Of a stretch of 37,207 nucleotides of DNA, positions 3,916-36,257 are shown one piece after another. Below the pieces are notes generated by a model. The model searched no databases, was not told the DNA's origin, and saw nothing but the letters and a program-made list of their open reading frames with translations. A program made the position numbers and the translations under genes. Every line of letters starts with the position of its first letter. The first letter of the stretch is position 1. The stretch is from Planktothrix sp. FACHB-1365 (GTDB lineage Bacteria > Cyanobacteriota > Cyanobacteriia > Cyanobacteriales > Microcoleaceae): NCBI RefSeq assembly GCF_014697575.1, contig NZ_JACJSC010000008.1, positions 157,075 through 194,281 on the forward strand. Reading direction: 5' to 3'.

Positions 3916-5103
3916 TCAGGGCAAATCTCCCCAAATATTTTGATAGCGTTCTACCATTTGGCAAGCGGCTTGATACTGTTTTTGGGCGAGTTCGGGTGGA
4001 GATAAAACCTGTGCTAAGTTTAAATATTTATTGACCCAAATCATAAATTCATTGAGAGATCGAGAAGGTAAATTAATTTTATAATCAACAGATAAGAGTT
4101 TTCCCTGTTTATCTTTAATCACCTTAATTTGTTGACGAATATGGCGACGATCCCCTTCTAAAATAAAATTAGTAGCGGGAGGAAAAAAGCGAACATGAAC
4201 CAATTCTAAAGGCAGTTCTCCAGCCAGTTCCTGTTGTTGTTCGACTAAATTACCTAAATTTAATCCCCATCCTTGGTTTAATAATTGATGCGCTTTCTGT
4301 AAATTATCATATTGTTCTTGGAGAGGGCGAGTTTGAGACAACAATTGGCAATAATTTCCATAGCGGTTCATTCGACCAATTGTGAGTTGACCGTTTTCGC
4401 AGGATTCATACAGCAAATACCAAGCAATATTAAAATGAATTAGTTGTAAGGGCCAAATTTTTACTAATCCAATTTGTCCCGAATTATAGGGGTCACTAAA
4501 CCGGGAAATTTCAATAGCTTTTCCAGTGAGAATTGCATTTTCAATCTGATCTAATTGATGAAAAAGAGTATGTTGCACATTGCCCATTTCCAACATTTCA
4601 TCCGGGTCAGTCCACACAATAGAACGGTTGAGTTGTTGTCGAACAGGATAGAAAAATTCTCCTTTTCGTTCTAAGTTAACCCCTCGCAATCGCTTTTCTA
4701 AAGTTTCACAAATTCGTCTAGTTTTGGAATCCGCTTGATATTGACTCAAGGAAACTAACAGTTGAAACGCAACTTGTAATTCCTCCCAACTCATCACACC
4801 CGTTCCGAGATAATAACCCCAACGGTACATTCGCTGTTCAAGAATGCTGTAACGCCGTAGGGTTTCGATATCTTTGCGAATTGTTGGTAAAGCTGGATAA
4901 CCCGCAGGAAGGTTAATTTTCAGTTCAGAGGCAAGCTGCTGTAAGTGATATTGGACATCTGATAGAGCATTCCGATGTTCTCCTTTCTGAGTTGGGGGAG
5001 TGTTACCAACCCCTGGATATTGAACCAAGGTGGCAATTAATAACATCAATCGCTCAAAGGCTTGTTGATCTGAATAGGGATGGAGTGTTGGCTTTTTAGC
5101 CAT
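3916..5103 (-). CDS. WYL-domain protein, putative transcriptional regulator of the adjacent cmr operon, divergently transcribed
   Basis: Central segment RFSDPYNSGQIGLVKIWPLQLIHFNIAWYLLYESCENGQLTIGRMNRY fits the WYL-domain pattern (W-Y-L followed by G..r.FrL.Ri). ATG at 5101-5103. It sits head-to-head with cas10/cmr2 across a 325-bp gap. Confidence 0.55.
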   Translation of the reverse strand: MAKKPTLHPYSDQQAFERLMLLIATLVQYPGVGNTPPTQKGEHRNALSDVQYHLQQLASELKINLPAGYPALPTIRKDIETLRRYSILEQRMYRWGYYLGTGVMSWEELQVAFQLLVSLSQYQADSKTRRICETLEKRLRGVNLERKGEFFYPVRQQLNRSIVWTDPDEMLEMGNVQHTLFHQLDQIENAILTGKAIEISRFSDPYNSGQIGLVKIWPLQLIHFNIAWYLLYESCENGQLTIGRMNRYGNYCQLLSQTRPLQEQYDNLQKAHQLLNQGWGLNLGNLVEQQQELAGELPLELVHVRFFPPATNFILEGDRRHIRQQIKVIKDKQGKLLSVDYKINLPSRSLNEFMIWVNKYLNLAQVLSPPELAQKQYQAACQMVERYQNIWGDLP

Positions 5104-5470
5104 ATTCCGTAGGATAATAGTCGTAATAAGCCAATATTGACATGAAGCTTGTGATTTCTTAAAAAATTTAGATTTTTCAAGGATTATTGAGTTTTGTAAC
5201 TTAAACGATAAATATTGTGAAATTCAAGACAGAACCTATCACAGGTTGGTAAAGTTAGTAAATAGTTAATTTGTGAGAACATCACATTTGTTGTCCCCCT
5301 AGATTTAACAAACTTGCAAATTCTGGCTAAGTCCAGTTAATTCACTCATCACACGCATTACCATCGACTGTAGAAGCACTGTTCTGCACAGCTACCCCCT
5401 GCGAATACTCTTAGATATTAAATTCAATTTGTCTTGTTTTAATGAGACAAAACTAACCAGCTATGAAATT
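5104..5470. promoter_or_regulatory. Divergent promoter/operator region between the WYL regulator gene and cas10/cmr2
   Basis: Non-coding AT-rich gap between two divergent genes. No specific -10/-35 boxes claimed. Confidence 0.3.
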
Positions 5471-7174
5471 ATGTCTATGACTGAAGGATATACAGCCATA
5501 AGTTTTGCACCTGTGCAGGGCTTCATCGAAAAATCCCGTAAACTGAGGGATTTATATGGAGCCTCGCTGATTCTATCTTACTTAAGTTCCCGAATAGTAC
5601 AAGAGGCATTATGTTCAGGATTAGAGGTGATTTCTCCGGGATTACCGACAATTCAAAAAGGAATGCCCAACCGAATTTTAATTAAAGGAAAATTTGAGCG
5701 CAATGATGTGCAGAATATCCTATTAAACGAATGGCAAAAGATTTTGATAATTTGCCGGGAGTGGATAGAAGACAATATCGGTATCCCAAAAACTGAGTAT
5801 TATTGGTCACAACCAGAAGACCAAATTGGCAAACATAAAGGAGAATGGGAACGCTGGGGAAGCCATACCTGGGAAATATTTTGGGGATATGGTGCATCAA
5901 TCCCAGATGCAATGGAAGACTTAGAAACTCGTAAATTAAAACGAGATTGGATTGGGATTAATTGGATGGGTGAAAGTTCAAGTTTAACTGGAACCGATGC
6001 GATTGCTTGGCATCAATTAGGAAAGGAATCTAACCAACCCGGACAAGCACTAACCCCAGACCAAAAAGACCAACTTGAACTATTTTATAGGCGCTTATCT
6101 TGGTTATTAGATAATCCAGAGGATAGACTTCAAAAATCTAGTTTATCTTTGCAGGCGTTAAGGGAGTACGAAGAAAAAAACCCTGACACCAGTGGTAAAT
6201 ATCTTGCTCCGAATGAACGGTTGAGTATTCCCGAACTGGTGAAACGTTTAGTCACTTATGACAAAATTGCTGATCAGATTGGGATGGCAAAAATTAAACA
6301 AAAATCCTCCGATCCAGAGTTTAAGGAAATTAACCGAAACGCAGGATACTGGACAGGATGGTTTATGGGTGATGGTGATGAAGTTGGGGATAAACTTCAG
6401 CTACTCGCCACTCAATCTGAAGATCAGATGAAGAAGTTCACCCTTAAAATGAGAGAATGGGGGAAAGAATTTGAAGCAAAAACAGACTTATTTCCCCCCG
6501 GAAAAGGACGGGTTATTTATGCCGGGGGTGATGATTTTTTAGGGGTGCTTTACAGTGAGCAAACCGATAAAAATTCCAATTCCAATAAACTCAAACTGAC
6601 GGAAGTATTAAATTGGTTGTTACATTTACAGGAGCATTGGGAGGAACTGCAAGCCAGTATTAAAGAAGATCTCAACTTTGACTTTACCTTTAGTGTGGGT
6701 TTTGTTTGGGCAGGTCATCAAGTTCCCCAACGGGATATTTTACAACACTGTCGAGAAGCGGAAAAACGTTCAAAAAGTTTAGAACGCGATCGCTTAACCA
6801 TTCGAGTAGTTTTTAATAGCGGTCAGTTTGTACAGTGGACTTGCCCTTGGAAAGATTTAGACATTTTGAAGAAATATCGCGATCGCGATGGCAAAACCTG
6901 GGGAGAAAATCCCAATTGGACTCACATTTACAATGATTGGGCACAATTAAAAGCCCGTCATGGGATTTGCTTAGAGGAAACGGTTAAACGTTCTGTGAAG
7001 AAAGACATTCCTTTAGCGTTATTTAATTTGTATTTCGATCAAATCGGAGAAAGATTTAATGAGGAAAATAGATGGGATGAAATAGCAGGAGAGAACAAAA
7101 ATTTAGCAATTGTAAATTGGCTTAATGATCTGGTACAAGTAGGTTGGCAATTATGTCACAATTCCAATATGTAA
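5471..7174 (+). CDS. cmr2: Cas10/Cmr2, type III-B large subunit; HD nuclease domain absent, cyclase GGDD motif present
   Basis: N-terminus ISFAPVQGFIEKSRKLRDLYGASLILSYL matches the start of the first Palm/cyclase-like domain of Cas10 (lfsigPVQeFIa.aRkt.DLwagS.lLSyL). GGDD motif in IYAGGDDFLGVL. No H-D dipeptide region precedes it. Only about 570-580 aa. The ORF is open from a TTG at 5429; first ATG at 5471. Confidence 0.85.
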   Translation: MSMTEGYTAISFAPVQGFIEKSRKLRDLYGASLILSYLSSRIVQEALCSGLEVISPGLPTIQKGMPNRILIKGKFERNDVQNILLNEWQKILIICREWIEDNIGIPKTEYYWSQPEDQIGKHKGEWERWGSHTWEIFWGYGASIPDAMEDLETRKLKRDWIGINWMGESSSLTGTDAIAWHQLGKESNQPGQALTPDQKDQLELFYRRLSWLLDNPEDRLQKSSLSLQALREYEEKNPDTSGKYLAPNERLSIPELVKRLVTYDKIADQIGMAKIKQKSSDPEFKEINRNAGYWTGWFMGDGDEVGDKLQLLATQSEDQMKKFTLKMREWGKEFEAKTDLFPPGKGRVIYAGGDDFLGVLYSEQTDKNSNSNKLKLTEVLNWLLHLQEHWEELQASIKEDLNFDFTFSVGFVWAGHQVPQRDILQHCREAEKRSKSLERDRLTIRVVFNSGQFVQWTCPWKDLDILKKYRDRDGKTWGENPNWTHIYNDWAQLKARHGICLEETVKRSVKKDIPLALFNLYFDQIGERFNEENRWDEIAGENKNLAIVNWLNDLVQVGWQLCHNSNM

Positions 7175-8229
7175 TTACTGTTTCCCCCTTGGGGTTTATG
7201 TATGGCAGTGCCGGAGGGTTTCTGTCTCCAGAAAACCTAGTGGGACGCTCAGGTGCTAAATTCCCACCTGATACAGGAGCAATCGCAGGACTATTTTTTA
7301 ATGCGAATCAAAGTGATCGGGAAACCTTGAGAAATAATCTGATTGTTGCTGGCCCCTTTTGGGCAAAACAAGATAGTCCTGATAATTTCTATGTTCCCAT
7401 TCCTTGGACTAAGGTAATGGCAGAGAAAGATAATGATGAATGGCAATTTGTCAAAAAACAAAATTCATCAGAATCGATTGAATCTAATGGTGATCAATGG
7501 TGTCTGGGTCAACATCAATGGGAACGTCAAAAGAAAGAGGTAAAACCGCAGTATAGTTGGCAGTTAATTAAGGATTGGAATTTACCTGCGGATGAACTCA
7601 AAGCCAGAAATGCGATCGCAAAAGTTCCTTGGCATTTTGTTCCGATGTTACATCCCAAAATGAAAGACAACGAGCGGCACGTTGTTGAAGAAGATGGACT
7701 ATTTTTAGAAAATGCCGTGCAGTTAGATCAAGACTATTGCCTCGTTTATCTATCTAACTATGAACTAGCCAATGGATGGTATCGGTTTGGTGGTGAAGGA
7801 CATTTAGTAGAAGTTGAAACCCATAAGCTCTCAGATAACCCTAAAATCAACCAACTTCTAGGGCAAAAAATTAACCATGCTTTTGCGCTCATTACCCCTG
7901 GTGTTTGGGGGTCAAATAAACTTTCCTACCGTTACCCTCGTCACCCCGATTTTCCCCGCCAAGGGATGAAAATGCTCACCGATAAAGCCGTTGCTTACCG
8001 TTATCGTTTGGGTCATTCCAGAACGAATCAACAACCCCAAGCGGAAAGCGGACGACTCAGCCGAGGACGTTATGCTGTCCCCGCCGGAAGCGTTTACGTC
8101 TTGAAACATCCTTTGAATTTAACGTGGTGGGAGTTTCCTGACGAATGGTTTCCCAAAGAAGGATTTTCCCTCAAACACTTGGGATCTGCTTTATGTTTAC
8201 CCATTAGTATTCAAGGAGTACCCGAATAA
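7153..8229 (+). CDS. cmr3: Cmr3 (Cas5-group RAMP)
   Basis: Second gene of the operon. N-terminus VITVSPLGFMYGSAGGFLSPE...FPPDTGAIAGLF matches the Cmr3 N-terminal signature (sPl.frdGrPF ... FPPsPstlaGAl). Overlaps cmr2 by about 22 nt and ends in TAATG with cmr4. The listed ORF starts at a TTG at 7144; first ATG at 7153. Confidence 0.7.
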   Translation: MSQFQYVITVSPLGFMYGSAGGFLSPENLVGRSGAKFPPDTGAIAGLFFNANQSDRETLRNNLIVAGPFWAKQDSPDNFYVPIPWTKVMAEKDNDEWQFVKKQNSSESIESNGDQWCLGQHQWERQKKEVKPQYSWQLIKDWNLPADELKARNAIAKVPWHFVPMLHPKMKDNERHVVEEDGLFLENAVQLDQDYCLVYLSNYELANGWYRFGGEGHLVEVETHKLSDNPKINQLLGQKINHAFALITPGVWGSNKLSYRYPRHPDFPRQGMKMLTDKAVAYRYRLGHSRTNQQPQAESGRLSRGRYAVPAGSVYVLKHPLNLTWWEFPDEWFPKEGFSLKHLGSALCLPISIQGVPE

Positions 8230-9047
8230 TGTACAGCAAAGCCTACGGAATTATTGAAGCACTGGCCCCTCTCCATGTCGGGGCAACGGCTGGAGAAGAA
8301 ACTGGAAATCTTAATCTGATTTTTCGTGACCAATTTACCCAGACGGGAATCATCCCTGGTAGTTCGATTCGGGGACGGTTTCGCGCCGATATGCGAGATC
8401 GAGAAGCCGGGGAAGAACAACGTTGGTATGGACATGAATCCGTTGATGGTCGTCCTGATGGGGGGACAACCGAAGCCTTAGTTAAGTTTGAATACGCTTC
8501 TCTGGTTTGGTTTCCGGTCTTTTGTCCAGGTCAACCAGTGGTTTGGGTTAGTTGTCCTTTCCTCTTAAAGCGGTTTAAACGGATTGCAGGAATTACGGCG
8601 GATACTCCTGCTCCTTATACTGCCCAGAGTGGTTTACAAGGTCGCCAAATTGAAACCGGAGGGAAAATTCTATTTTTTAACTTAGGGTTTCTCAAAATTG
8701 AACATAACCAGAACTTATCCGATTGGATTCCCAAAGGAACAAGTTTAGAGGGGAATAAATTAGTCGTAGTTGATGATAACGATATTGCTATGTTACATGA
8801 TATGGCACTCTATCGCCAAAGCCGGGTTAAACTGTTGGATGAAATGAAAAAAGTGGATACAGAAAAGGGCGCGTTTTTCAATACAGAAGCGTTACCTGAA
8901 GGCAGTATTTTAGTGTTTCCGATTGCTTTAAAAGAAACAGGTTGGAAACCGTTTGGCGAAGCAGAAAATTCAGCAGATTTATATTTTGGCGGTTTAGAAT
9001 CCATTGGTTTTGGTCATTGTCGGGTTTCACTCCAAGGAGATTATTAA
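8229..9047 (+). CDS. cmr4: Cmr4 (Cas7 backbone RAMP)
   Basis: LAPLHVGATAG...GIIPGSSIRGRFR is the canonical Cmr4/Csm3 RAMP N-terminal motif with G-rich loop. About 272 aa. Confidence 0.85.
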   Translation: MYSKAYGIIEALAPLHVGATAGEETGNLNLIFRDQFTQTGIIPGSSIRGRFRADMRDREAGEEQRWYGHESVDGRPDGGTTEALVKFEYASLVWFPVFCPGQPVVWVSCPFLLKRFKRIAGITADTPAPYTAQSGLQGRQIETGGKILFFNLGFLKIEHNQNLSDWIPKGTSLEGNKLVVVDDNDIAMLHDMALYRQSRVKLLDEMKKVDTEKGAFFNTEALPEGSILVFPIALKETGWKPFGEAENSADLYFGGLESIGFGHCRVSLQGDY

Positions 9048-9049
9048 TT

Positions 9050-9457
9050 ATGAGTTGGGAATCTTATGAATTGGATCGGATTGCTCAAAAACTGGTTCTG
9101 CAAGCACGGAAACGGGAACCCCAATCCCTAAATCAATCCTATAAAATGCGAATGGCTGTCGCTTATGGGTTAGAACGATTTTGGGGTGAACATTTACGGT
9201 TAAAAGGCAGAGAGGAAACCAAATCAATTTTTTGGAAAGAAACTTGGGATGCTTTGCAAACCATTATGGGAAAAGCTGGGGTAAAAATTCCGAATGATGC
9301 CGTTAATCCCACTAATACCCAACAAATTCAAACCATGTCTGAAAAGCTTTGGGCTTTATCCGTGGAAGATCAACGAATTGCGATCGCAGTTTTAACGCAA
9401 CTTTGTGATTGTATTGTTTGGTGGACACAACGTTATAAAACAGGGCGGAGAGATTAA
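9050..9457 (+). CDS. cmr5: Cmr5 (Cas11 small subunit), about 135 aa
   Basis: Position between cmr4 and cmr6, size and helical composition. ATG at 9050 preceded by AAGGAGA. Upstream part of the listed ORF 8942-9457 overlaps cmr4 and is rejected. Confidence 0.55.
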   Translation: MSWESYELDRIAQKLVLQARKREPQSLNQSYKMRMAVAYGLERFWGEHLRLKGREETKSIFWKETWDALQTIMGKAGVKIPNDAVNPTNTQQIQTMSEKLWALSVEDQRIAIAVLTQLCDCIVWWTQRYKTGRRD

Positions 9458-9460
9458 CCC

Positions 9461-11200
9461 ATGACATCAATTCCTAGTGCTTATAAAAAAATCCCGATGA
9501 TGTTTCGCGCTCAAATTCCAGGGCGCAGTCAACTGCAATATTTAGATCCTCAGAAAAAAAGCCAAGGCGAAGATCAGGACGTGGAACGTTGGGTTGATGA
9601 ATGGATTGATCAAGCGGAGTTTATCTCTGAGGAAAACACTCAGGATATTGCAACCGCTACTTATCAAGCCAAGTCCTATGACATCTCTTGGCGGTTTGTC
9701 ACCAATGGCGGACAGGATGATGGAATGCTTCGCCCTGTAATTGGGGCTTCGGGGATTCCCTTTTATCCGGGTAGCAGTATGAAGGGGGCTTTTCGCCAAG
9801 CTTGTCAGCAAGCGGAAGATGCAGGTAAAGTCCCCCCAGGAACTTGTAATTATTATTGTGGGGATGAGTTAGACATCACCCCAGGGTTATTGCGGTTTCA
9901 GGGTGCTTACCCGATTAACGATTGGACAGAGGGTTTACTCGATTTAGTTCACCCGCAACAAGGTTGGCAGTTGATGACTCAGAACACCAATCAAAAACCG
10001 CAGGGGGAGAGTCCCTATGCCCAAATTTCCCTTTATAAGCCCAGGCTTCGGTTTGCCATTTCTAGCCCGAAATCGTTGTCAACCGATCAATGGGCGCAAA
10101 TTTGGGAAATTTGGCAACGAGCGCTGGCAATGGGTCTAGGATCAAAAGTTTCCACAGGCTACGGACAAATTAATCAAACGTCCCATCCGGTTCTGTTTCG
10201 GGCAAAACTCAAAGGTCAGGGACAAGCTGCCAAATTAATTGACGGGAGTGGCGAGTTTCGTCCTAATATTTTCCGCGCTGCTTTGCGAGGTCATGCGTTA
10301 AGAATTTTTGGAGGTTTAACGGATAGTAGAACCGCAGAACAATTAGTTGAGGATTTGTTGGGTGGTATTCAGCAAAGAGATGCAACCGTTGGGTTATTAG
10401 GGTTTCAGTTTCAGGAATCTAATTTAGAGATAAAATCCTTTGGTTCTGGAAATTATGCTCAACCTGCTTATAAGGTTGAAGGAGAATTAACTTGGTTTTT
10501 AGCGAAACCTTTAGCGGACTCAAATCAAGAAGCGATTTTGAAAAAATTAGTCGCAAAGTTAATGCAGTTTGCAATGATTTTTGGCGGATTTGGCAAATCT
10601 TGGCGACGGGCTGATCACCGCAAGTTTTTCCCAGACTATTATGAAAATGGCTACAAAGCTTTAATTGGTTGTCACTGGCAATGGTTAGGAGAAAATAGTC
10701 AACGTCGCTATGTCAAAGTCAGAAAATTAGATCAGGTGGGTAGCTTTTTAGATGGGGTGCGAGCAACTGCTAAAGAATGGATACAATCTCAAAATAAACC
10801 TTTACAAGAAAACCAATGGGCAAATAATTGGCGAGAGTCATGGCATCCGAGTAATGTTCAAGTTTGGGGTCGAATTGCTGAAGATGCTGACAATAGTATA
10901 GCGGTGCGTTGGTTTCATCAACCTTATCAAGAAAGAATCCAAAACTTTCAGCTAGAAAAAACAATTTACAACACTCATATTACAGGAAGAATGGGGCAAA
11001 TTAGTTTGATTTGTCATCGAATGTATCCTGCAATTAAACTTCTCAACAATCCAGAAGATCCTAACAAGCCGATTGTCAGACAAACTCCTAAATTTTTGGA
11101 ATTAATTACCATTTTTCCAGATAATTCACCAGAATGTAGAGATTTTTTGAATTTTTTAAAGCAAAATCCAGAAGACTTTCAACAACTTTGGGGGAACTAA
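9461..11200 (+). CDS. cmr6/cmr1: Cmr6-Cmr1 fusion protein (two Cas7-family RAMP modules in one 579-aa polypeptide)
   Basis: Residues 1-245 carry Cmr6 signatures: SWRFVTNGG...GIPFYPGSSMKGAFR, LRFQGAYP, and C-terminal LAMGLGSKVSTGYGQ. Residues 250-579 carry Cmr1-like signatures: RPNIFRAALRGHALRIFGG...EDLLGG and G-rich loop MIFGGFGKSWRR. No separate cmr1 gene in the window. Confidence 0.7.
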   Translation: MTSIPSAYKKIPMMFRAQIPGRSQLQYLDPQKKSQGEDQDVERWVDEWIDQAEFISEENTQDIATATYQAKSYDISWRFVTNGGQDDGMLRPVIGASGIPFYPGSSMKGAFRQACQQAEDAGKVPPGTCNYYCGDELDITPGLLRFQGAYPINDWTEGLLDLVHPQQGWQLMTQNTNQKPQGESPYAQISLYKPRLRFAISSPKSLSTDQWAQIWEIWQRALAMGLGSKVSTGYGQINQTSHPVLFRAKLKGQGQAAKLIDGSGEFRPNIFRAALRGHALRIFGGLTDSRTAEQLVEDLLGGIQQRDATVGLLGFQFQESNLEIKSFGSGNYAQPAYKVEGELTWFLAKPLADSNQEAILKKLVAKLMQFAMIFGGFGKSWRRADHRKFFPDYYENGYKALIGCHWQWLGENSQRRYVKVRKLDQVGSFLDGVRATAKEWIQSQNKPLQENQWANNWRESWHPSNVQVWGRIAEDADNSIAVRWFHQPYQERIQNFQLEKTIYNTHITGRMGQISLICHRMYPAIKLLNNPEDPNKPIVRQTPKFLELITIFPDNSPECRDFLNFLKQNPEDFQQLWGN

Positions 11201-11204
11201 AATT

Positions 11205-12845
11205 ATGATTTTATGGATAGTGACCATTGGTAGCAGTGATGTTCAGCTTGATAGTGATAAAGCGAATCGAGACAAGGGCAGAACTGAAAAACAACGCAGT
11301 AATATCGTTTGGCGAAATTGGTATAATGATGATATTCTATATGAATGTTATGATGTTTCGTTTGAGCCTCAACCTATTTTCCAAGATGTTAAAGAATCTT
11401 ATCGCATCGTGGCTCGAATTTTAGGGAAGGTTTATCAATTAAGTTCAGAAAAAGTTAAACAACAAATTGAAACCTATTTAACGTTTCCGTTGCTGAGTAA
11501 CTTTGTTGAAAAGTTGAAAACGATTGAAGTTCCTGATGCAATCGCCTTTATTTTAACGGATCAATCACAGATTTTTCAAGACAATGCTCAGAGACGACAA
11601 CCTAAATCTCCCTATTGGCAAGATACCTGTGAATTAAAACCGATTCTTGAGAGTTATTTTAAACAAGAATTCCCCGGAGTTGAACTGATTCCTCTACAAT
11701 TGTCTCCACCCGATAAACCGGGTTTAGATGATTGGGATCGGGTTTTGAATTTAGTTCAGAATGAATTCGCTAAAATTCAATTAGAGCCGGATATTGTTTA
11801 TGTGAGTCATCAAGCCAGTACCCCGGCAATTTCTTCAGCAGTTCAGTTTGAAAGTTTGACTTTATTCGGTCAACGAGTCAAATTTTTAATTAGTAATGAA
11901 CAAGATTCTAACTTAACTCGTTTTATTGATCGGTCATCTTATCTCAAAAGAATTCGCCGACAAGAGGCTTTGGCATTACTCAAAAATTATGATTATTCAG
12001 GGGTTTACCAATTACTTAAAGAGGATATACAGCAATCTCAAAAAGCCATAGAACAACAAACTTTAGAGAAATTAGAGATGGCGATGCTCTGGAATTATGC
12101 TAAGTTTAAAGAGTTTTTGGAGCGTCGATTAAATTTATCTCAAGAAGCGACAGAAATCTGGTGGGATGAAAATTGGTGGCAACCTGTGTATGAAGCTGCT
12201 TATTTAGCAAAAATTCGATTTAAACAGAGTAATATGGTTGAGGCATTTTTTCACGGGTTTCGAGCCGTTGAAGCCGCATTTTTAGAATGGGGGAAACATG
12301 AATTTAAAGCTCATATCAAACTCGACCTCGACAATGAACGTTCTTATTTACAACCTTCGATCCTTGATGATCCTAAAAATTATTTTAAGGGGGCAAAAAT
12401 CAACCTAGAAAATCCTAAAAAAACGAATAGCCTTGGAAAATTAAAGATTAAATTTCAAGAGCTTGCAGTCAAACTAGAAACACTGGGAGAAAACGACCAA
12501 AAACCTAAAGGAATACTCCTTGCTGGCGAAGATTTATACACGCTATTTAGAATTGAAAAACCAAACTGCCAAAACATAGTTGATTTTAAACGTTTTTGGG
12601 CGCAAGACGGTATTTGTGACAAGCGAAATAAAAATTTTCATCAATTACAAGGTTTGTCAGAAGTTGAAGTTTTTAAAGACTGGGAAGTAGAAAATTTAGA
12701 GCAATGGGAAAAACGAGTTTTAGTTTATCTAAACTTTATTGCTAAAGACAATCTACCTCAAGAATTTACATCTCTTGAAGAAGCGAGTTTAATGGCAAAA
12801 CTTCACCAAGAGATTGAAGAAGCGATCGCATCTTATCAACCTTAA
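11205..12845 (+). CDS. csx1: Csx1-like CARF-HEPN ribonuclease (cOA-activated effector), 546 aa
   Basis: N-terminal CARF-like beta strand plus loop MILWIVTIGSSD; later IAFILTDQS and VYVSHQASTPAISSA. C-terminal HEPN R-X4-H motif in CDKRNKNFHQLQG. Only 4 nt after cmr6/1. Confidence 0.65.
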   Translation: MILWIVTIGSSDVQLDSDKANRDKGRTEKQRSNIVWRNWYNDDILYECYDVSFEPQPIFQDVKESYRIVARILGKVYQLSSEKVKQQIETYLTFPLLSNFVEKLKTIEVPDAIAFILTDQSQIFQDNAQRRQPKSPYWQDTCELKPILESYFKQEFPGVELIPLQLSPPDKPGLDDWDRVLNLVQNEFAKIQLEPDIVYVSHQASTPAISSAVQFESLTLFGQRVKFLISNEQDSNLTRFIDRSSYLKRIRRQEALALLKNYDYSGVYQLLKEDIQQSQKAIEQQTLEKLEMAMLWNYAKFKEFLERRLNLSQEATEIWWDENWWQPVYEAAYLAKIRFKQSNMVEAFFHGFRAVEAAFLEWGKHEFKAHIKLDLDNERSYLQPSILDDPKNYFKGAKINLENPKKTNSLGKLKIKFQELAVKLETLGENDQKPKGILLAGEDLYTLFRIEKPNCQNIVDFKRFWAQDGICDKRNKNFHQLQGLSEVEVFKDWEVENLEQWEKRVLVYLNFIAKDNLPQEFTSLEEASLMAKLHQEIEEAIASYQP

Positions 12846-12858
12846 CCATTCATTAACT

Positions 12859-12886
12859 GTAGGGGTGAGGCGCGCCTCACCCCTAC
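12859..12886. repeat. Perfect 28-bp palindrome GTAGGGGTGAGGCGCGCCTCACCCCTAC between the two CARF genes; candidate attenuator, terminator or operator
   Basis: Direct reading: 14-bp arms with no loop. Shares the GAGGCG/CGCCTC core with the tandem repeats at 20144-20206. Confidence 0.6.
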
Positions 12887-12949
12887 GAAATTCTAAGGAA
12901 ATCGAAATATTTTTAGGTTTAATTGTTGAATTAATTGAATTAAATCATT

Positions 12950-14224
12950 ATGACAAGTATTGTTTTATCCTTTGTTGGCAACCAAGATCCCTTTTCTGAC
13001 CAGACCACAGAAGAAGGTTCTATTGTTACTTTAATTCGGTATTTAATGGCAGAAAAAAATACAATTAATCGGGTTATCCTATTACATACAGCCGAAACCC
13101 AAGAACGAGCAGAAGCGACTAAGGATTGGTTAAAAGATGAACCTTTAAATTTATCTCTTGATCAGATTGATATTATTCCGGTTGAAGATATTCTTTCCCA
13201 AGATCCTGTTAATTTATTGGCGGCTGTTCAAGAAGCTAGAAAAGGATTAGATTTAGCGAAACAATATCTACAAAAAGGTGATCATTTAGAGTTTAATGCG
13301 TCATCGGGTACACCTGTAATGAAGTCAGCTTGGAGTATTTTACAAGCGGCTGGTTACGCGCCTCATAGTTCGGTTTGGCAAGTTAGAAACCCTAAACAAA
13401 TGCAGTCGGGACAACCGAGAGTTTTTTCGACAAATGTGGAGGTTTTAAAAAATGAATTTGATTTAAAAGTAATTCAACAACAAATTTTAGATTATAATTA
13501 TAGTGGAGCTTTAGCAACAGTCAAAGTTAGTAATTTATCGACAGAATTGATTGAAGCCTTGTTAAAATATGCTGATTATCGGATGGCGTTTGATTTTGAT
13601 TTAGCATTTACGGCGATTCAACCTTGGAAATCTGATTTAGAATCTCAGTGGATTTCGGAAATTTCTAGTTTACGTCAAAAAAATAAGCCTGCTTTATTAA
13701 AAGAAGTTTATTTTAAGGCGTTTATGAAACTTAAAAATCAACAATATGCTGATTTTTTGGTTGATGTGTTTAGATTTCAAGAAGGGTTTCTTAGATTTGT
13801 TGTAGAAGAAACCCTGAAAGTAAAACTTCCTAAAAAAAGGTCAGAAATTGATCAGTTCTGGGCAACTCTCAAGCGAATAGAAGGGGGTCGTTTTTATAAA
13901 AGCTTAGAAAATTATCGTTTACCTAATGGCAAAAGCTTAGATCTTAATGGTTTTATGAGTCGGTTAATTATGATGATTATTCTGGAAATATCGCCCCAAT
14001 TCTGCCCCCTCTATTCACAAATAGAAACGTTAAATGAATATTGTGAACAACGTAATCAATTTATTCATGATTTTGAGGGAATTTCGGAAATTGATGAACC
14101 GGAGAAAGTTAAAAAAAATATGCGAGAATTATTGCAAGTGATTACTCATGTTCCGAAAATAAATCCTTATGATATTCTCAACCAAAAGATATTTAATTTG
14201 TTAGAATCTAGGGTTAAAAATTAA
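12950..14224 (+). CDS. csm6: Csm6-like CARF-HEPN ribonuclease (second cOA-activated effector), 424 aa
   Basis: CARF signatures IVLSFVGNQDPF and EFNASSGTPVMKSAWSIL (N/D-x-S-x-GT-P-M motif). HEPN R-X4-H in CEQRNQFIHDFEG near the C-terminus. Size typical of Csm6. Confidence 0.65.
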   Translation: MTSIVLSFVGNQDPFSDQTTEEGSIVTLIRYLMAEKNTINRVILLHTAETQERAEATKDWLKDEPLNLSLDQIDIIPVEDILSQDPVNLLAAVQEARKGLDLAKQYLQKGDHLEFNASSGTPVMKSAWSILQAAGYAPHSSVWQVRNPKQMQSGQPRVFSTNVEVLKNEFDLKVIQQQILDYNYSGALATVKVSNLSTELIEALLKYADYRMAFDFDLAFTAIQPWKSDLESQWISEISSLRQKNKPALLKEVYFKAFMKLKNQQYADFLVDVFRFQEGFLRFVVEETLKVKLPKKRSEIDQFWATLKRIEGGRFYKSLENYRLPNGKSLDLNGFMSRLIMMIILEISPQFCPLYSQIETLNEYCEQRNQFIHDFEGISEIDEPEKVKKNMRELLQVITHVPKINPYDILNQKIFNLLESRVKN

Positions 14225-14315
14225 TATTTTACCTTTTGATTTTACTCAATAAGCTTAAAAATAGCCAAAACATTCAGTTATTTGTAGGACATTAAAACAT
14301 TATCAAGGAGCTATC

Positions 14316-14597
14316 ATGTATATTTCTAGTCGTGCCATTGTTGTTCGGAATTTTGCGATCGCTATTGTCAATGGAACAATTACCTTAATTATCCTGTTAA
14401 TTGCTCCAGTGGGATTAGCCGCCGTAATTAGTAATACTTTTTTAGTGACAATTGCCACTTTTTTTACCGCCACTATAGCTGATGGTATTATTCGATTTCT
14501 GCAACCTTCTCGCTCTATGGGTGAAATTCCTTTACATCAAAATACGACCTATTCTTCTGAATTAGATTCTCGTTCATCCCATGAGATTGATCGCTAA
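14316..14597 (+). CDS. Small hydrophobic protein (93 aa, about two TM helices) inside the cas operon
   Basis: Strong RBS AAGGAG 7 nt before the ATG. The body is a long hydrophobic stretch; the C-terminal roughly one-third is polar (PSRSMGEIPLHQNTTYSSELDSRSSHEIDR). Stop lies 3 nt before cas1. Confidence 0.45.
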   Translation: MYISSRAIVVRNFAIAIVNGTITLIILLIAPVGLAAVISNTFLVTIATFFTATIADGIIRFLQPSRSMGEIPLHQNTTYSSELDSRSSHEIDR

Positions 14598-14600
14598 ATT

Positions 14601-15593
14601 ATGTTAACATTGTATGTGTCTGAACAAGGATGTTATCTAACTTTAGAAGCCGAAAGTTTGTTAATCAAAAAGGGGAAGGAAGTCTTAGCAGAAGCTCAAA
14701 TTCCCCTGCTGGAACAAGTGTTAATTTTTGGTAAATCTCAAGTGACGACTCAAGCGATTCGAGCTTGTTTATTTCGTAATGTTCCGATAGCTTATTTATC
14801 TCGCATGGGATATTGTTATGGTCGAATTTTACCGGTTGAACGGGGATATCGGCATCTATCTCGCTATCAACAACAACTGACTAGAGTAGACCGTTTAATT
14901 GTAGCTCGTCGCATTGTACAAGCGAAACTGAAAAATAGTCGAGTGATTCTCCAACGCCAAGCTCGTCGTCAATCTTCTGAGGCGATTACTTTTGCAATTC
15001 AAAGTTTAAATCATTTGATGGAAAAGGTAATAGAAGCAGAAAGTTGGGAACGATTAATGGGGTTAGAAGGTGCAGCGGCTTCTCAATATTTTTCGGCTTT
15101 GGGTGACTGTTTAACTCATCCTAAGTTTGTGTTTACGGTGCGATCGCGTCGTCCCCCTGGAAATCCAGTCAATGCTTTATTGAGTTTTGGGTATCAAGTT
15201 CTGTGGAATCATCTTTTAAGTTTAATTGAACTTCAGGGACTTGACCCTTATTTCGGGTGTTTACATCAAGGAACTGAACGTCATGCTGCTTTGGCTTCGG
15301 ATTTAATTGAGGAGTTTAGAGCACCGATTGTGGATTCATTGGTGATGTATTTAATTAATCGCAATATGATTGATGCAAATACGGATTTTACTTACCATGA
15401 TGGCGGTTGTTTTCTGAATGATTCGGGTCGAGTTAAATTCTTAAAGGCGTTTCTGCAACGAATGGAGGAAAAGTTAACAACTGTGGCGGGAGAAAATCAA
15501 CCTCGATGGGATATTTTGACTCAACAGGTGAAGCTTTTTAAGCAATTTGTTTACAACCCGATTGAAGGATACCAACCTTATGAGTTGCGCTGA
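14601..15593 (+). CDS. cas1: Cas1 integrase
   Basis: LYVSEQGCYL...IPLLEQVLIFGKSQVTTQAIRACL...PIAYLSRMGY is a typical Cas1 N-terminus. 330 aa. ATGA overlap with cas2. Directly upstream of the CRISPR leader. Confidence 0.9.
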   Translation: MLTLYVSEQGCYLTLEAESLLIKKGKEVLAEAQIPLLEQVLIFGKSQVTTQAIRACLFRNVPIAYLSRMGYCYGRILPVERGYRHLSRYQQQLTRVDRLIVARRIVQAKLKNSRVILQRQARRQSSEAITFAIQSLNHLMEKVIEAESWERLMGLEGAAASQYFSALGDCLTHPKFVFTVRSRRPPGNPVNALLSFGYQVLWNHLLSLIELQGLDPYFGCLHQGTERHAALASDLIEEFRAPIVDSLVMYLINRNMIDANTDFTYHDGGCFLNDSGRVKFLKAFLQRMEEKLTTVAGENQPRWDILTQQVKLFKQFVYNPIEGYQPYELR

Positions 15594-15874
15594 TGTTATT
15601 TTATATTGTTGCCTATGATATTCCTTGTGATAAACGTCGTCGCAAAGTGGCGAATTTATTAGAGGGATATGGAAAGCGGGTTCAATATTCGGTGTTTGAG
15701 TGTGTTCTACCTGAATCAAAATATCTTGAGTTACAGAAACGCTTGAAAAAACAGGTGAATTTGGCGGAAGATAATCTGCGGTTTTATCCTCTTTCTCGCC
15801 ATACTTGGGGAAGTGTGGAAACTTGGGGTCAGGGGCCAAAGATTACTGAGTATCCGAGTTCGTTGATTGTTTAA
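15593..15874 (+). CDS. cas2: Cas2
   Basis: MLFYIVAYDIPCDKRRRKVANLLEGYGKRVQYSVFEC is the canonical Cas2 N-terminus (vYDi..d+rR.kv.k.L..yG.RvQySVF). 93 aa. Confidence 0.88.
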   Translation: MLFYIVAYDIPCDKRRRKVANLLEGYGKRVQYSVFECVLPESKYLELQKRLKKQVNLAEDNLRFYPLSRHTWGSVETWGQGPKITEYPSSLIV

Positions 15875-16190
15875 AGAGGTTGGGGAGGCTTAGGAAAGTT
15901 TGATGAGCCTCGCCAGCTTTCTGGGTAAGGGTTTCGTTTTTTTGCCCGGACATGAAACCAGGGGTTTGGATGGGGAAGTTTAGGAGGGATCATCAACGAA
16001 ATCATGGGCTTGCGAGGCTCAGGCAAAATGGCTGTAATACTGATTCTCTCATTGGGAGCCTCGATATTGCTCTGGGTAAGGATTCTGGCGATTTTGGCAG
16101 CAGGCAAAATCGGGTTTCAGCCAACGGTTTTCCTGAGCCTCGCAAATGCCTACTAGACAGCCGATGGTGTCTGGGTTTAAAATAGGGGGA
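15875..16190 (+). promoter_or_regulatory. CRISPR leader
   Basis: Lies between cas2 and the first repeat. Contains a 14-nt inverted repeat pair (TTGCGAGGCTCAGG at about 16008-16021 and CCTGAGCCTCGCAA at about 16132-16145). Further GAGCCTCG(C) copies at about 15903 and 16056. Two AGGCAAAAT motifs. Hairpin CGATTTTGGCAGCAGGCAAAATCG. The degenerate repeat at the far end of the array places the leader here. Confidence 0.6.
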
Positions 16191-18975
16191 CTCCCCACTC
16201 GCTGGGGAAATTAATTGATTGGAAACTTCAATGATCTCTGTTGTCTTGAAGAAGTCTATACTAGCTCCCCACTCGCTGGGGAAATTAATTGATTGGAAAC
16301 TGCACTAGAGAACACAGCGCCATCAGGGTACATACGTACCTCCCCACTCGCTGGGGAAATTAATTGATTGGAAACCTTGAGGTACCTAATTTAGTTAAGA
16401 GTGTATATACTCCCCACTCGCTGGGGAAATTAATTGATTGGAAACACAATCCCTCCTTATGAGATAGCAATTATAGGGAGGGAGATTAAGGACTCCCCAC
16501 TCGCTGGGGAAATTAATTGATTGGAAACACAGGAGGTAATAACTTCACTGCAATTGAAGTTATCTCCCCACTCGCTGGGGAAATTAATTGATTGGAAACG
16601 AAGGATAATGCGATTCAATAGATAGATATAAGAGAGGTCTCCCCACTCGCTGGGGAAATTAATTGATTGGAAACGGTAATATCAAATGACTATTCTTCTT
16701 ACTTACTCCCCACTCGCTGGGGAAATTAATTGATTGGAAACATCAAGAATCTGGCAGTCGGCTGCCTTTACGTGGTCTCCCCACTCGCTGGGGAAATTAA
16801 TTGATTGGAAACTTGTAGCGAGTTATATACATCAATAGCTTCTTGGACTCCCCACTCGCTGGGGAAATTAATTGATTGGAAACTAGGGTAAATCTGACAT
16901 ATCAATTCTCCTATACTCTCCCCACTCGCTGGGGAAATTAATTGATTGGAAACGAGGTCATTGCCATCGAACTTACCGAACTCCAAGTAGCTCCCCACTC
17001 GCTGGGGAAATTAATTGATTGGAAACTCGTATTCATCGTAAAGGTCTTCTGGTTCCCACCGCTCCCTCCCCACTCGCTGGGGAAATTAATTGATTGGAAA
17101 CGGTGAACTGCTTGACTCCAAAGTGGGTGAAACCTTCAACTCCCCACTCGCTGGGGAAATTAATTGATTGGAAACTAGGAACTTATGTAGTTCGGCTGTG
17201 TAAGTCTTTAGCTCCCCACTCGCTGGGGAAATTAATTGATTGGAAACAACCACTCAAGAATGGTTTCACTTGCACCAAGAGGCATCGTGACTCCCCACTC
17301 GCTGGGGAAATTAATTGATTGGAAACTCTCCCATTCAATGGGAAGACTTAGATATTTCCACCTCCCCACTCGCTGGGGAAATTAATTGATTGGAAACTTA
17401 ACTATCCCTTTATATTGTTAGGTCATTTCACATTCCCCTCCCCACTCGCTGGGGAAATTAATTGATTGGAAACTGGCACTCTTCTACATGACCTCCAATC
17501 TGAATCTGTTTCCACTCCCCACTCGCTGGGGAAATTAATTGATTGGAAACCTTGTTCAGTAATACCTTTAGTAGATGTTAAGTACTCCCCACTCGCTGGG
17601 GAAATTAATTGATTGGAAACCGGAGTTGTTGTCCTCAGTTAATTATTGAAAATGATCAACACTCCCCACTCGCTGGGGAAATTAATTGATTGGAAACGAG
17701 TGCCACAATTTCATCGTGGCTGATTTCTTGTGCATTAATCTCCCCACTCGCTGGGGAAATTAATTGATTGGAAACCTGAAATAGAGAGAGTTATCTCTCT
17801 AAGGAACTCATGTTCCATCTTGACTCCCCACTCGCTGGGGAAATTAATTGATTGGAAACCAGGACGAGCGAGAAGTTCAGCTGCACGTTTTTGTTGCCCT
17901 TCTCCCCACTCGCTGGGGAAATTAATTGATTGGAAACTGTGTAGGGATAACTAACTCCCTGAAGGATTGCCCCTCCCCACTCGCTGGGGAAATTAATTGA
18001 TTGGAAACAAAAGAGAGAAGGTTAGATTGGAACCCACCCCAACTCCCCACTCGCTGGGGAAATTAATTGATTGGAAACTCTTAAAGACAATTTGATTGTT
18101 GAGAGACTCACATTCGTCTGGGTCTCCCCACTCGCTGGGGAAATTAATTGATTGGAAACACTGCAGAAGCTGTACCTAACCACCACTCTAAGGTGGCATC
18201 ATATCTCCCCACTCGCTGGGGAAATTAATTGATTGGAAACTAGAAGTAGAGGGAAGAGGTGAAGAGTAGAAATAGTCTCCCCACTCGCTGGGGAAATTAA
18301 TTGATTGGAAACCAGTGAGTAGTCGGTAACAAGACATTAAGTTCTCAACTCCCCACTCGCTGGGGAAATTAATTGATTGGAAACAAGCATGATGGCCAAA
18401 GGCTTAAGCCTTAAAGCTGTACTCCCCACTCGCTGGGGAAATTAATTGATTGGAAACTTATAGCACCATAATGGTGAGTTGATCCTGGCATAGCTCCCCA
18501 CTCGCTGGGGAAATTAATTGATTGGAAACAAGGAGAAGAGATGTTTATTAGCACCACCACGACCCTCCCCACTCGCTGGGGAAATTAATTGATTGGAAAC
18601 ACTTCTTCTTCTGTTTGAAAGTACCAATTCCAGTCAACATCTCCCCACTCGCTGGGGAAATTAATTGATTGGAAACACCTCCCACTTGACCACTTCTGAG
18701 TGGCAAAGCAGGACTCCCCACTCGCTGGGGAAATTAATTGATTGGAAACAACGGATTCACATTACAAGTGTTGATTATTTTCATTCTCCCCACTCGCTGG
18801 GGAAATTAATTGATTGGAAACAGGGGATCTGACAGGTTTTTATAATGAATTTGTAACTCATTGACTCCCCACTCGCTGGGGAAATTAATTGATTGGAAAC
18901 AGGTTTGGGAAGCGATCGCGATATTCCGACCACTTCCCAGATCTCTCTACTTGCTAGGGAAATTCTATAAAATCC
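16191..18975 (+). CRISPR. CRISPR array with 37 identical 36-nt repeats (CTCCCCACTCGCTGGGGAAATTAATTGATTGGAAAC) plus one degenerate terminal repeat, and 37 spacers of about 34-47 nt
   Basis: Counted by eye: repeat starts at 16191, 16265, 16340 ... 18865. Degenerate copy CTCTCTACTTGCTAGGGAAATTCTATAAAATCC at about 18943-18975. Repeat has a CCCCA/TGGGG stem and ends in GAAAC (a type III/I-like 5' handle). Transcribed on the + strand away from cas2. Confidence 0.95.
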
Positions 18976-18995
18976 TAGTTTAAATGCACAATATC

Positions 18996-20102
18996 TTATT
19001 GCAATTGCAGTTGTCGTTGAACTTTAACTAAAGTGCGATCGCCTCTAATTAATTGATATTCAGCCTTCCAATTTCCGGGGGTTAAAGGGGATTGAGGATT
19101 ATTTTTTTTCCCCACATAACCAATCCAAGTTTTACTCGATTCATTCACAAAACTTTCATTATTAACAACTTTTATTCCCTGAGCATCATAAACATTAAAA
19201 ATCATTTTATCTCCCGTTAATACCCCATAAACCTGTACCCAAAATAACAATGCTGGACTATCTTGGGGTAAAATAGTTTCGTTAAATTTACCCTGCCATA
19301 ATTCATCCATTGTCGGGGGTTGGGTTGAAAATCCAGCCCGAATTAACCCCGTTGGAATATAGGCTAAGGATTGTTCCCAAATGGGGTTACGAGTCACATT
19401 ACATCCGGCCGTTGCTTCTGGCCCCACAAAGGGATCAATCACTTCCCCGTTATAACGAATGGTGAGATGAACATGGGGAAAGGAGGCTAACCCAGAAGCG
19501 CCAACTGATCCTAAAATTGTCCCTTTCTCAACGGTATCCCCCGGTTTAACCCGCAGGCTTCCCTGTCGCAAATGACAATATTGAGTTTCCCAGCCTGCGC
19601 CATTGGGCACAGAGCGATGGTCAATAACAACCCCATTACCGCATTCCGTCCCTTCTACCGCCGTTTTATCCGCTTCCTGTGCAATGCGTTTGTCAACCAC
19701 GCCATCTCGGACTCGTAACACCGTCCCCGCCGCCGACGCCACCACCGGAACCCCTCTGGCCATGGCTTGTTCGTCTGGTATGGCAAAATCTGTGCCTTGA
19801 TGACCATCATAGGTTTGCCGTCCACAGCCAAAATCAACAGCCTTGGGACTAGGATCTCGATCTGGGTATAACAAAATAAAGCAATCTTCACCCAGTTGAC
19901 AATCAATGGGTTGGGCAAAACGGGGGGTTTGGGGGGTTTGGGTAATCAGTTGTTGGGTCATCCCTTCCGCCAGGGTCTGAGCGTGTTGCAGAGAAGACTC
20001 AGCCGTTTGTGTGACATTCGGACTCCAACAACTGACTAATACCATTAACCCCAAAGTCAGGAAGAATGCAACCCCGTATTTTTTAGCGCTTGAACTCCTC
20101 AT
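18996..20102 (-). CDS. M23 family metallopeptidase (LytM-like) with signal peptide or lipobox
   Basis: HxxxD motif in YDGHQGTDFA and HxH motif in SFPHVHLTI. N-terminal hydrophobic signal ending in VSCWS. Confidence 0.8.
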   Translation of the reverse strand: MRSSSAKKYGVAFFLTLGLMVLVSCWSPNVTQTAESSLQHAQTLAEGMTQQLITQTPQTPRFAQPIDCQLGEDCFILLYPDRDPSPKAVDFGCGRQTYDGHQGTDFAIPDEQAMARGVPVVASAAGTVLRVRDGVVDKRIAQEADKTAVEGTECGNGVVIDHRSVPNGAGWETQYCHLRQGSLRVKPGDTVEKGTILGSVGASGLASFPHVHLTIRYNGEVIDPFVGPEATAGCNVTRNPIWEQSLAYIPTGLIRAGFSTQPPTMDELWQGKFNETILPQDSPALLFWVQVYGVLTGDKMIFNVYDAQGIKVVNNESFVNESSKTWIGYVGKKNNPQSPLTPGNWKAEYQLIRGDRTLVKVQRQLQLQ

Positions 20103-20104
20103 AT

Positions 20105-20206
20105 TTAGCCCCGTAGTCAGCCCTTCAGGGCTGTCTTTCCAGACAGAGGCGTGAACGCCTCACTACAATTTAATGGATAGAGGCGTGAACGCCTTACTAC
20201 AATTTA
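20105..20206. repeat. Hairpin CAGCCC-TTCA-GGGCTG followed by two tandem 28-nt copies of AGAGGCGTGAACGCCT(C/T)ACTACAATTTA, each with an AGGCG-TGAA-CGCCT hairpin
   Basis: Direct reading. First hairpin belongs to the same family as 313-376. Copies at 20144-20171 and 20179-20206 differ by 1 nt. Located between two minus-strand genes. Confidence 0.6.
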
Positions 20207-24841: not shown

Positions 24842-24869
24842 CTGTTCCCTGTTCCCTGTTCCCTGTTCC
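24842..24869. repeat. Heptanucleotide tandem repeat (CTGTTCC) x4, similar in kind to the heptamer STRR repeats described in filamentous cyanobacteria
   Basis: Direct reading: actgttccctgttccctgttccctgttccc between convergent genes. Confidence 0.7.
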
Positions 24870-24871
24870 CT

Positions 24872-35586: not shown

Positions 35587-35668
35587 TTTTTGTATAGCCT
35601 TTATCGGGTAAATAGTCTGTATATTACTCATTTGATAACTGGTAAATTACGAAATAAGTAGGTGTTCA

Positions 35669-35878: not shown

Positions 35879-35884
35879 TAATAT

Positions 35885-36247: not shown

Positions 36248-36257
36248 TTAAATAAAT

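Follow-up and report, generated by a model that had tools for sequence, protein, structure and literature searches.

An HD-less type III-B variant CRISPR-Cas locus of a Planktothrix-like cyanobacterium with two predicted Csm6-family effectors and an asparagine at the slicer position of Cmr4

A stretch of 37,207 nucleotides (nt), referred to here as "the window" and used for all coordinates, was analyzed for the CRISPR-Cas locus located between positions 3916 and 18975. This interval holds twelve genes and a CRISPR array, and all of its open reading frames (ORFs) are intact. The whole is best explained, with a probability put at about 0.78, as an intact type III-B variant system on the chromosome of a filamentous cyanobacterium resembling Planktothrix. 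The Cas10 of this system is devoid of an HD domain and has intact cyclase motifs, and the genes for two predicted RNases of the Csm6 family follow those of the Cmr complex. By sequence, the repeat and the adaptation genes belong to the lineage of CRISPR3 of Synechocystis 6803, and the backbone subunit, Cmr4, features an asparagine where the target-slicing aspartate is usually found.

Every gene assignment was backed by profiles from NCBIfam, Pfam, and PADLOC, with E-values (down to 1e-208) far beyond chance. For the short Cas10, Cmr5, the long Cmr6, and both CARF-HEPN proteins, the PADLOC collection contains dedicated full-length profiles. The order on the plus strand is cas10/cmr2, cmr3, cmr4, cmr5, long cmr6, effector 1, effector 2, csx18, cas1, cas2, leader, and array. 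A Cas10 with two Palm domains, Cmr3, Cmr4, Cmr5, and Cmr6 were each matched, which places the locus in type III-B. An initial annotation, made from the DNA letters and their translations, had described a complete type III-B locus that includes adaptation genes and an array, and the profile matches bear out this gene content. The adjective "complete" disregards that no cas6 is present in the 37-kb window. The single orientation with tiny gaps or overlaps that had been noted applies to the genes from cas10 to the array, but not to the first gene (3916-5103), which is on the minus strand.

Cas10, the Cmr subunits, and the CARF-HEPN effectors

The features of the effector module are as follows (lengths in amino acids, aa):
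5104..5470, no strand: divergent intergenic region (367 nt) in which neither an HD ORF nor an in-frame N-terminal extension of Cas10 is encoded
5471..7174, plus: Cas10/Cmr2, 567 aa, HD-less, with DGD at 301-303 and GGDD at 352-355; PADLOC Cas10b PDLC02051 2.5e-204 over the whole 479-position profile; Pfam Cmr2_N and palm2
7144..8229, plus: Cmr3 (Cas5-like), start at TTG 7144 or ATG 7153; Pfam Cas_Cmr3 5.7e-10; PADLOC Cmr3 3.6e-16
8229..9047, plus: Cmr4 backbone subunit, 272 aa, in which Asn29 stands where canonical Cmr4 has the slicer Asp; PADLOC Cmr4 6e-24; TIGR02580 2e-22
9050..9457, plus: Cmr5 small subunit, 135 aa; PADLOC Cmr5 PDLC01476 2.5e-66, full length
9461..11200, plus: long Cmr6, 579 aa, the "Cmr1-Cmr6 fusion" of subtype III-Bv; PADLOC Cmr6 PDLC01212 3.6e-208, full length
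11205..12845, plus: effector 1, predicted Csm6-family CARF-HEPN protein, 546 aa; PADLOC CARF1--CARF_HEPN 1.2e-130; Csx1 6e-113
12950..14224, plus: effector 2, predicted Csm6-family CARF-HEPN protein, 424 aa; PADLOC CARF_HEPN PDLC01806 9.5e-172; TIGR02672 Csm6 2.7e-25

The ORF of Cas10 is open from a TTG at 5429, but the ATG at 5471 is the likelier start and yields a protein of 567 aa; an independent gene call (P0001) is of the same length and 100% identical to it. Alignments to Pfam Cmr2_N and to NCBIfam TIGR02577 open at profile position 2, which corresponds to about residue 8 of the protein. The earlier description of a Cas10 of about 570 aa that opens at its Palm1 block with no HD domain was therefore accurate. 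An HD-bearing extension was sought upstream in frame and was absent, as the frame is closed by stop codons some 55 codons ahead of the ATG. The largest ORF in the 367-nt gap does not exceed 44 aa, and none of the ORFs of at least 100 aa in the window had a Pfam match to an HD domain. With neither an HD ORF nor an in-frame H-D extension upstream, an HD domain supplied from there or in trans within the window was excluded. Homologs of this Cas10 number 1708 at E <= 1e-5. The 120 best of them are nearly all of about 510-617 aa (one is a 427-aa fragment), and their precomputed Pfam domains comprise palm2, Cmr2_N, and, in a few, mCpol, with nothing else.

The GGDD motif (IYAGGDDFLGVL; G352, G353, D354, and D355) is intact, as had been claimed, and both it and the upstream metal-binding DGD (D301-G302-D303) are invariant among Cas10 homologs (n = 32). 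The GGDD region aligns with Palm2 of the Cmr2 chain in Protein Data Bank (PDB) entry 9arw, which is named DtCmr. The structure prediction that the initial annotation had proposed was carried out with AlphaFold2 (AF2; predicted local-distance-difference score, pLDDT, 74.7; predicted TM-score, pTM, 0.78). The best structural matches to the model were the 592-residue Cmr2 chain of 9arw and the HD-deleted Cmr2 of P. furiosus (Cmr2dHD); the TM-scores, normalized to target length, were ca. 0.5 against such HD-less chains and ca. 0.3 against full-length, HD-bearing ones. Cas10 is thus HD-less with intact cyclase motifs and, because the HD domain is absent, would be unable to cleave single-stranded DNA itself.

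Such a design is a common one. A survey of 1113 type III loci found an HD domain in 39%, a cyclase in 92%, and both in 34% (PMC11229360); from the latter two figures, about 58% of the catalogued loci are cyclase-positive and HD-negative. An HD-less, cyclase-positive type III system with CARF effectors is accordingly the majority state, and the cyanobacterial family has already been profiled and annotated (the homologs of this Cas10 carry the name "type III-B Cas10/Cmr2").

The long Cmr6 is composed of an N-terminal Cmr6 RAMP domain and about 330 additional aa at the C-terminus. When its family profile was compared to the Cmr6 chains in the PDB, only positions ~60-230 aligned; the C-terminal ~330 aa contain a RAMP-like, G-rich motif (GGFGKSWRR) and had no PDB or Pfam Cmr1 match. 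No separate cmr1 gene is present in the locus. The protein is 22% identical (E = 2e-11) to the 649-aa long RAMP protein of Synechocystis CRISPR3, the type example of subtype III-Bv, which is defined by a Cmr1-Cmr6 fusion and the lack of Cas6 (PMC6546367). In both proteins the RAMP/Cmr6 part occupies the N-terminal half.

Two CARF-HEPN genes with R-X4-H motifs had been reported directly after cmr6, and both motifs were located: R474-NKNF-H479 in effector 1, in which R474, N475, and H479 are invariant (n = 40 sequences), and R368-NQFI-H373 in effector 2, in which R368, N369, and H373 are invariant (n = 4 sequences). Homologs of effector 1 in public databases are all labeled "hypothetical protein". 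A Pfam search with effector 1 gave no match, and PDB searches with the single sequence and with a profile returned nothing; because these searches were empty, a structure model was needed to reveal its Csm6 fold. The AF2 model (pLDDT 89.4) matched the full-length Csm6 proteins of E. italicus (cA6-bound) and T. thermophilus (cA4-bound) and the Csm6' of S. thermophilus, as well as isolated CARF domains. For effector 2, the family profile matched Csm6' (PDB 8pcw) at 2e-5, with the CARF region of Csm6' aligned.

The characterized Csm6 RNases thus share with the window proteins the architecture of CARF, helical, and HEPN parts and the R-N-x3-H motif. The fold match spans the whole of effector 1, and effector 2 matches Csm6' by profile. 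The differences are an identity of just 12-15% and, for effector 1, a length about 100-150 aa greater than that of the Csm6 proteins of E. italicus, S. thermophilus, and T. thermophilus. The ligands of these nearest solved relatives are cA6 (E. italicus Csm6 and S. thermophilus Csm6') and cA4 (T. thermophilus Csm6). From sequence and model, both effectors are predicted Csm6-family CARF-HEPN RNases. Of the names first given to them, csx1 and csm6-like, the latter suits both; neither is a Csx1 of the TIGR02221 type.

The slicer position of Cmr4

In a phmmer alignment, D26 of P. furiosus Cmr4, the slicer aspartate, pairs with Asn29 of the window protein. Ninety-five full-length Cmr4 representatives were aligned using MAFFT, and the D26 column contained D in 74, E in 2, N in 13, and a gap in 6 of them; 10 of the 13 Asn cases make up the window clade, and the gaps belong to the clade of the Synechocystis CRISPR3 type. 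The profile-profile pairing in hhalign agrees, with the canonical G~IDLPI~RE set against GNLNL-IFRD. An aspartate regarded as universal in type III is hence missing from both clades, being replaced by Asn in that of the window and deleted in that of Synechocystis CRISPR3, whose Cmr4 is the nearest outgroup. A search on the catalytic residues of Cmr4 in III-Bv found nothing in the library of papers that was consulted.

In P. furiosus, the D26A and D26N substitutions both abolish target cleavage (PMC4333402, PMC7192623). Because Asn29 is equivalent to the D26N change that kills slicing there, canonical slicing of the target is doubtful and, judging from the alignments, is probably weak or absent in the window complex. 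Target RNA cleavage by Cmr4 had been named in the initial annotation as one of the two bases of immunity; with Asn29 in place of the slicer Asp throughout the clade, that part of the proposal is in doubt.

Asn at the slicer-Asp column also occurs in three Cmr4 representatives outside the window clade, namely P0289, P0367, and P0383, with the respective motifs GNNNPIYR, GNRNPIFR, and GAINLPTMRE. Because of these three cases, the D-to-N change is taken to have arisen in more than one lineage.

Regulator, adaptation module, array, and lineage

The features that flank the effector module are listed below:
3916..5103, minus: HTH-WYL-WCX regulator, 395 aa, divergently transcribed; PADLOC WYL/Csx1 9.4e-55, WYL 4e-13
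14316..14597, plus: Csx18, small hydrophobic adaptation-associated protein, 93 aa; NCBIfam NF040558 2.3e-28, over the curated cutoff; PADLOC Csx18 7.6e-32
14601..15593, plus: Cas1; Pfam Cas_Cas1 5.9e-90; 62% identical to Synechocystis CRISPR3 Cas1
15593..15874, plus: Cas2; Pfam CRISPR_Cas2 6.7e-25; 61% identical to Synechocystis CRISPR3 Cas2
15875..16190, plus: leader, 316 nt; promoter-like site at 16154-16183, by consensus match only
16191..18900, plus: CRISPR array, 37 identical 36-nt repeats (CTCCCCACTCGCTGGGGAAATTAATTGATTGGAAAC) and 36 spacers of 31-48 nt
~18943..18978, plus: degenerate 38th terminal repeat (CTCTCTACTTGCTAGGGAAATT...), 42 nt past the last full repeat

The small ORF that had been noted upstream of cas1 is present and can now be identified as Csx18. 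In the family of the divergent regulator, Pfam detected WYL in 15 of 16 members, WCX in all 16, and a weak HTH_DeoR in 3. The PADLOC label of "CARF+WYL" was rejected, as Pfam gives HTH, WYL, and WCX only; because no CARF match was obtained in this family, a regulator that senses cyclic oligoadenylate (cOA) is not supported. A gene for a GUN4-domain protein is found a few kb upstream of the WYL gene both in the window (1084-2151, plus strand) and in the locus from Leptolyngbya boryana pLBX (L030, 6031-6639), which may be a coincidence.

In the leader, the motif GAGCCTCG...CTGGGTAAGG is repeated in two to three copies (15905-15933, 16056-16084, and ~16135) and may be bound by factors for integration or regulation. 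HIP1-like palindromes (GCGATCGC), typical for cyanobacterial genomes, were observed at 6876-6889, inside cas10, and at ~18911-18922, just past the last repeat. An Rfam scan of the leader and array detected no CRISPR-DR family and returned one spurious, sub-threshold match.

The repeat is identical at 31 of 36 positions to that of Synechocystis CRISPR3 (located on pSYSA), including all 19 nt of the 3' part, and the 13-nt handle of the CRISPR RNA (crRNA), AUUGAUUGGAAAC, which was mapped experimentally in Synechocystis, is kept. The architecture comprises a 5' stem-loop (nt 2-18) followed by an AU-rich, single-stranded 3' half; in the minimum-free-energy fold, positions 2-7 are paired with 13-18. 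Across 12 repeat variants, all six pairs of this stem change on both sides, and 95.8% of the stem cells are paired, compared to 26-65% when the partner columns are slid. One of the differences between the window repeat and that of CRISPR3 is a compensatory change from U-A to C-G in the stem. A cas6 gene was sought with NCBIfam, Pfam, and PADLOC among all ORFs of at least 100 aa in the window, and none was found. In Synechocystis, RNase E acts together with RNase J in the maturation of CRISPR3 crRNAs (PMC12464536). Because the window has a repeat of the CRISPR3 type with the same handle and a covarying stem, and has no cas6, its crRNAs are probably matured by host RNase E, by analogy to that system.

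Twenty-nine related loci were found, all of them from cyanobacteria or unassigned metagenome bins. The module of a minus-strand WYL gene and Cas10-Cmr3-Cmr4-Cmr5-long Cmr6-effector 1 is conserved in about 17 cyanobacterial loci, and the WYL gene is divergently upstream of cas10 in most of the related loci. Of 19 informative loci, 17 have effector 1 after the long cmr6. Effector 2 is an accessory found in a minority (beyond the window, only in L014, L017, and L025), and Csx18-Cas1-Cas2 is present in about nine. The orthologous loci of Microcoleus, Planktothrix, Capilliphycus, Coleofasciculus, L. boryana pLBX, and others have the gene order of the window, often continued by Csx18-Cas1-Cas2, a short Cas10 that is 44-70% identical, and a repeat of the same family; they differ in that the second CARF-HEPN gene is mostly missing and the array position varies. 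The annotated pLBX locus of L. boryana (25 kb) matches in gene order and has no annotated cas6. A second type of repeat, CCCTACCGATTGGGTTAAATCGGATTAGTTGGAAAC and its variants, was seen in L012 (11517-11994), L026 (16751-16999), and L031 (11024-11596); these arrays belong to another family and adjoin truncated or fragmented cas10 and cmr genes, i.e. decaying copies of the module.

Synechocystis CRISPR3 resembles the window locus in its repeat and handle, the 5' stem-loop, the lack of cas6, the long Cmr6, and the Csx18, Cas1, and Cas2 module (42%, 62%, and 61% identical, respectively). By these sequence criteria, the repeat and Csx18-Cas1-Cas2 of the window belong to the CRISPR3 (III-Bv) lineage. 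In contrast, the proteins of the effector complex are only 22-32% identical, and the Synechocystis operon lacks a CARF-HEPN gene as well as a WYL gene in that divergent position. The Synechocystis Cas10 (Sll7090) is 979 aa long and has an N-terminal extension of ~220 aa with an H-D dipeptide, which the 567-aa Cas10 of the window lacks; the Pfam HD profile had no match in this extension, such that "HD-bearing" denotes only the 220 aa and the dipeptide. Because Cmr2_N begins at residue 222 in Sll7090 but at ~8 in the window Cas10, the effector module of the window, from Cas10 to the long Cmr6, is assigned from sequence to a distinct, HD-less sister clade of III-Bv. The G+C content is 0.40-0.44 in the Cmr core genes (8001-11000), 0.34-0.35 over both CARF-HEPN genes and csx18 (window 11001-15000), and 0.41-0.44 in cas1-cas2 and the array (15001-19000). 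This mosaic suggests modules of differing origin.

Other characterized systems share parts of this arrangement. VmeCmr (PMC8682760) and BfrCmr (PMC10600005) are HD-less III-B systems that signal by a nucleotide second messenger to an ancillary effector; they differ in using a NucC DNase with cA3 and a CorA membrane protein with SAM-AMP (S-adenosylmethionine-AMP), respectively, and their repeats and gene order are unrelated. The III-Dv system of Synechocystis (CRISPR2; SyCsx1 and SyCsm6) also combines an HD-less cyanobacterial Cas10 with two CARF proteins, one of which is a cA4-activated RNase while the other degrades cOA (PMC9676260, PMC11026444). By analogy, it is a precedent for a pair of effector and modulator. 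It differs in its fused Cas7 subunits, Cas6-2a-dependent maturation, and active slicer aspartates, and its CARF proteins are of other families (TIGR02221 Csx1 and CARF-RelE). The III-B clusters of Microcystis aeruginosa FACHB-524, which are compared here by their description, feature a Cmr1-6 fusion or long Cmr6, Csx1 and CARF genes, and short and long versions of Cas10; one cluster was reconstituted in E. coli with co-expression of Cas6 (PMC11855584).

Three aspects of the locus go beyond the routine: the III-Bv repeat in surroundings without cas6, the association of a missing HD domain with a Csm6-like gene in the operon, and, above all, the missing slicer aspartate. The Cas6-independent repeat of the CRISPR3 type is widespread in filamentous cyanobacteria and is joined here to a different, HD-less effector module; in this lineage, the absence of the HD domain co-occurs with an in-operon Csm6-like RNase that the databases do not name as such.

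Proposed mechanism, alternatives, and neighboring features

The following mechanism is proposed. The array would be transcribed from the cas2-proximal leader, and host RNase E, possibly with RNase J, would cut the AU-rich, single-stranded half of the repeat, leaving a 5' handle of 13-14 nt, as the identity of the repeats suggests. The Cmr complex would bind complementary transcripts, and target binding would turn on the Palm/GGDD cyclase of Cas10, the motif of which is in place, to produce cOA. This messenger would activate the in-operon effector 1 and the accessory effector 2, and the activated Csm6-like RNases would degrade RNA non-specifically, resulting in growth arrest or abortive infection. 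With its HD domain absent, Cas10 would cleave no DNA. As slicing by Cmr4 is probably weak or absent, something else would have to terminate the signal, whether CARF-mediated degradation of cOA, target decay through the activated RNases, or RNases of the host. A probable role for the divergent HTH-WYL-WCX protein is transcriptional control of the operon.

Several points weigh against parts of this scheme, and they are given here with the alternatives on which they bear. The Cmr4 loop appears to be under strong constraint still, because its segment GEE[TS]GNLNLIFRDQFTQTG is invariant in ~24 locus-derived sequences and 10 representatives from clustering at 50%, i.e. ~34 sequences that are otherwise 45-80% identical. 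An acidic neighbor, either E23/E24 or D34, could replace the slicer Asp. In that case the model of the initial annotation would be right in full: Cmr4 would still slice at 6-nt intervals via a relocated acid in a shortened loop, slicing would time the signal as it does in canonical systems, and immunity would be the sum of slicing and cOA-activated RNases; the odds of this account were placed only just short of even. In its favor, both III-Bv clades conserve a Glu 3-5 residues upstream that the canonical consensus lacks. Further, slicer-dead Cmr4 is toxic in S. islandicus, where it causes autoimmunity (PMC9368842), and no such mutant strain of P. furiosus could be recovered (PMC7192623); a natural dead slicer would therefore need compensation. 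However, three independent alignments place Asn at the Asp position, and the sister clade has a deletion there. In P. furiosus, the E32A mutation (the equivalent of D34 here) had no effect, unlike those at D26 (PMC4333402, PMC7192623), and the slicer Asp is used in all type III active sites that have been examined (PMC11026444). At the other extreme, the window clade may be a natural "pure sensor" within III-B that has lost both HD and slicing, with a complex that only binds target RNA and signals. This idea is advanced tentatively, at somewhat less than even odds. If it is true, all killing would fall to Csm6-type RNases, and degradation of cOA or decay of the target by other RNases would replace slicing as the timer for switching off; clades in which slicing is truly absent would offer natural experiments on the avoidance of autoimmunity in type III signaling.

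The RNase E step is drawn wholly from the similarity of the repeat to that of Synechocystis, and a cas6 gene could be located elsewhere in the source genome. The locus would then be an ordinary III-B system with Cas6 supplied in trans, which is plausible in that type III loci frequently lack their own cas6 and share another, and cyanobacterial genomes usually have several CRISPR systems (three in Synechocystis; PMC3575380). This was nonetheless considered unlikely: none of three Cas6 knock-outs in Synechocystis affected the crRNAs of CRISPR3 (PMC3575380), the window repeat retains the whole 19-nt 3' part, RNase E site and 13-nt handle included, and the 25-kb locus of L. boryana is without an annotated cas6. 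Considerably less probable still is that the Palm domains produce SAM-AMP or some other signal in place of cOA, or that the cyclase is minor and an unseen partner nuclease cuts DNA. The HD-less III-B Cmr of B. fragilis does make SAM-AMP (PMC10600005), and 9arw, the nearest solved Cas10 by sequence, has GGED where the window protein has GGDD, but both linked effectors are of the predicted Csm6-family CARF-HEPN type, the solved relatives of which bind cA4 or cA6, CorA, NrN, and other SAM-AMP-associated genes are absent, and the operon contains no nuclease gene. Finally, none of the spacers matched any of 50,697 phage genomes, and for this reason recent activity is not demonstrated; cas10 is fragmented in related loci such as L012, L021, L028, L029, and L031. 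A decaying, functionless remnant was nevertheless judged highly improbable for the window, given twelve intact genes, conserved catalytic motifs, 37 identical repeats with 36 unique spacers, and strong synteny across genera. The intact ORFs and the state of the array are apparent signs of activity.

Outside of the CRISPR-Cas locus, the window encodes a 1150-aa protein in which a Ser/Thr protein kinase is fused to an SF1 helicase (AAA_11/AAA_12, Upf1-like) at 32134-35586 on the plus strand. It is followed on the same strand by a PemK/MazF-like toxin (35885-36247) and a 253-aa protein without a Pfam match (36258-37019). This cluster (32134-37019) may be a second defense or toxin-antitoxin cluster. 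Two tandem 34-nt units with a GC-rich hairpin (GAGGCGTGAACGCCTC) are located at 20145-20211, between two minus-strand genes, and a perfect heptanucleotide repeat (CTGTTCC, 4.3 copies) is found at 24842-24871, just past the stop of the minus-strand gene at 24872-25273.

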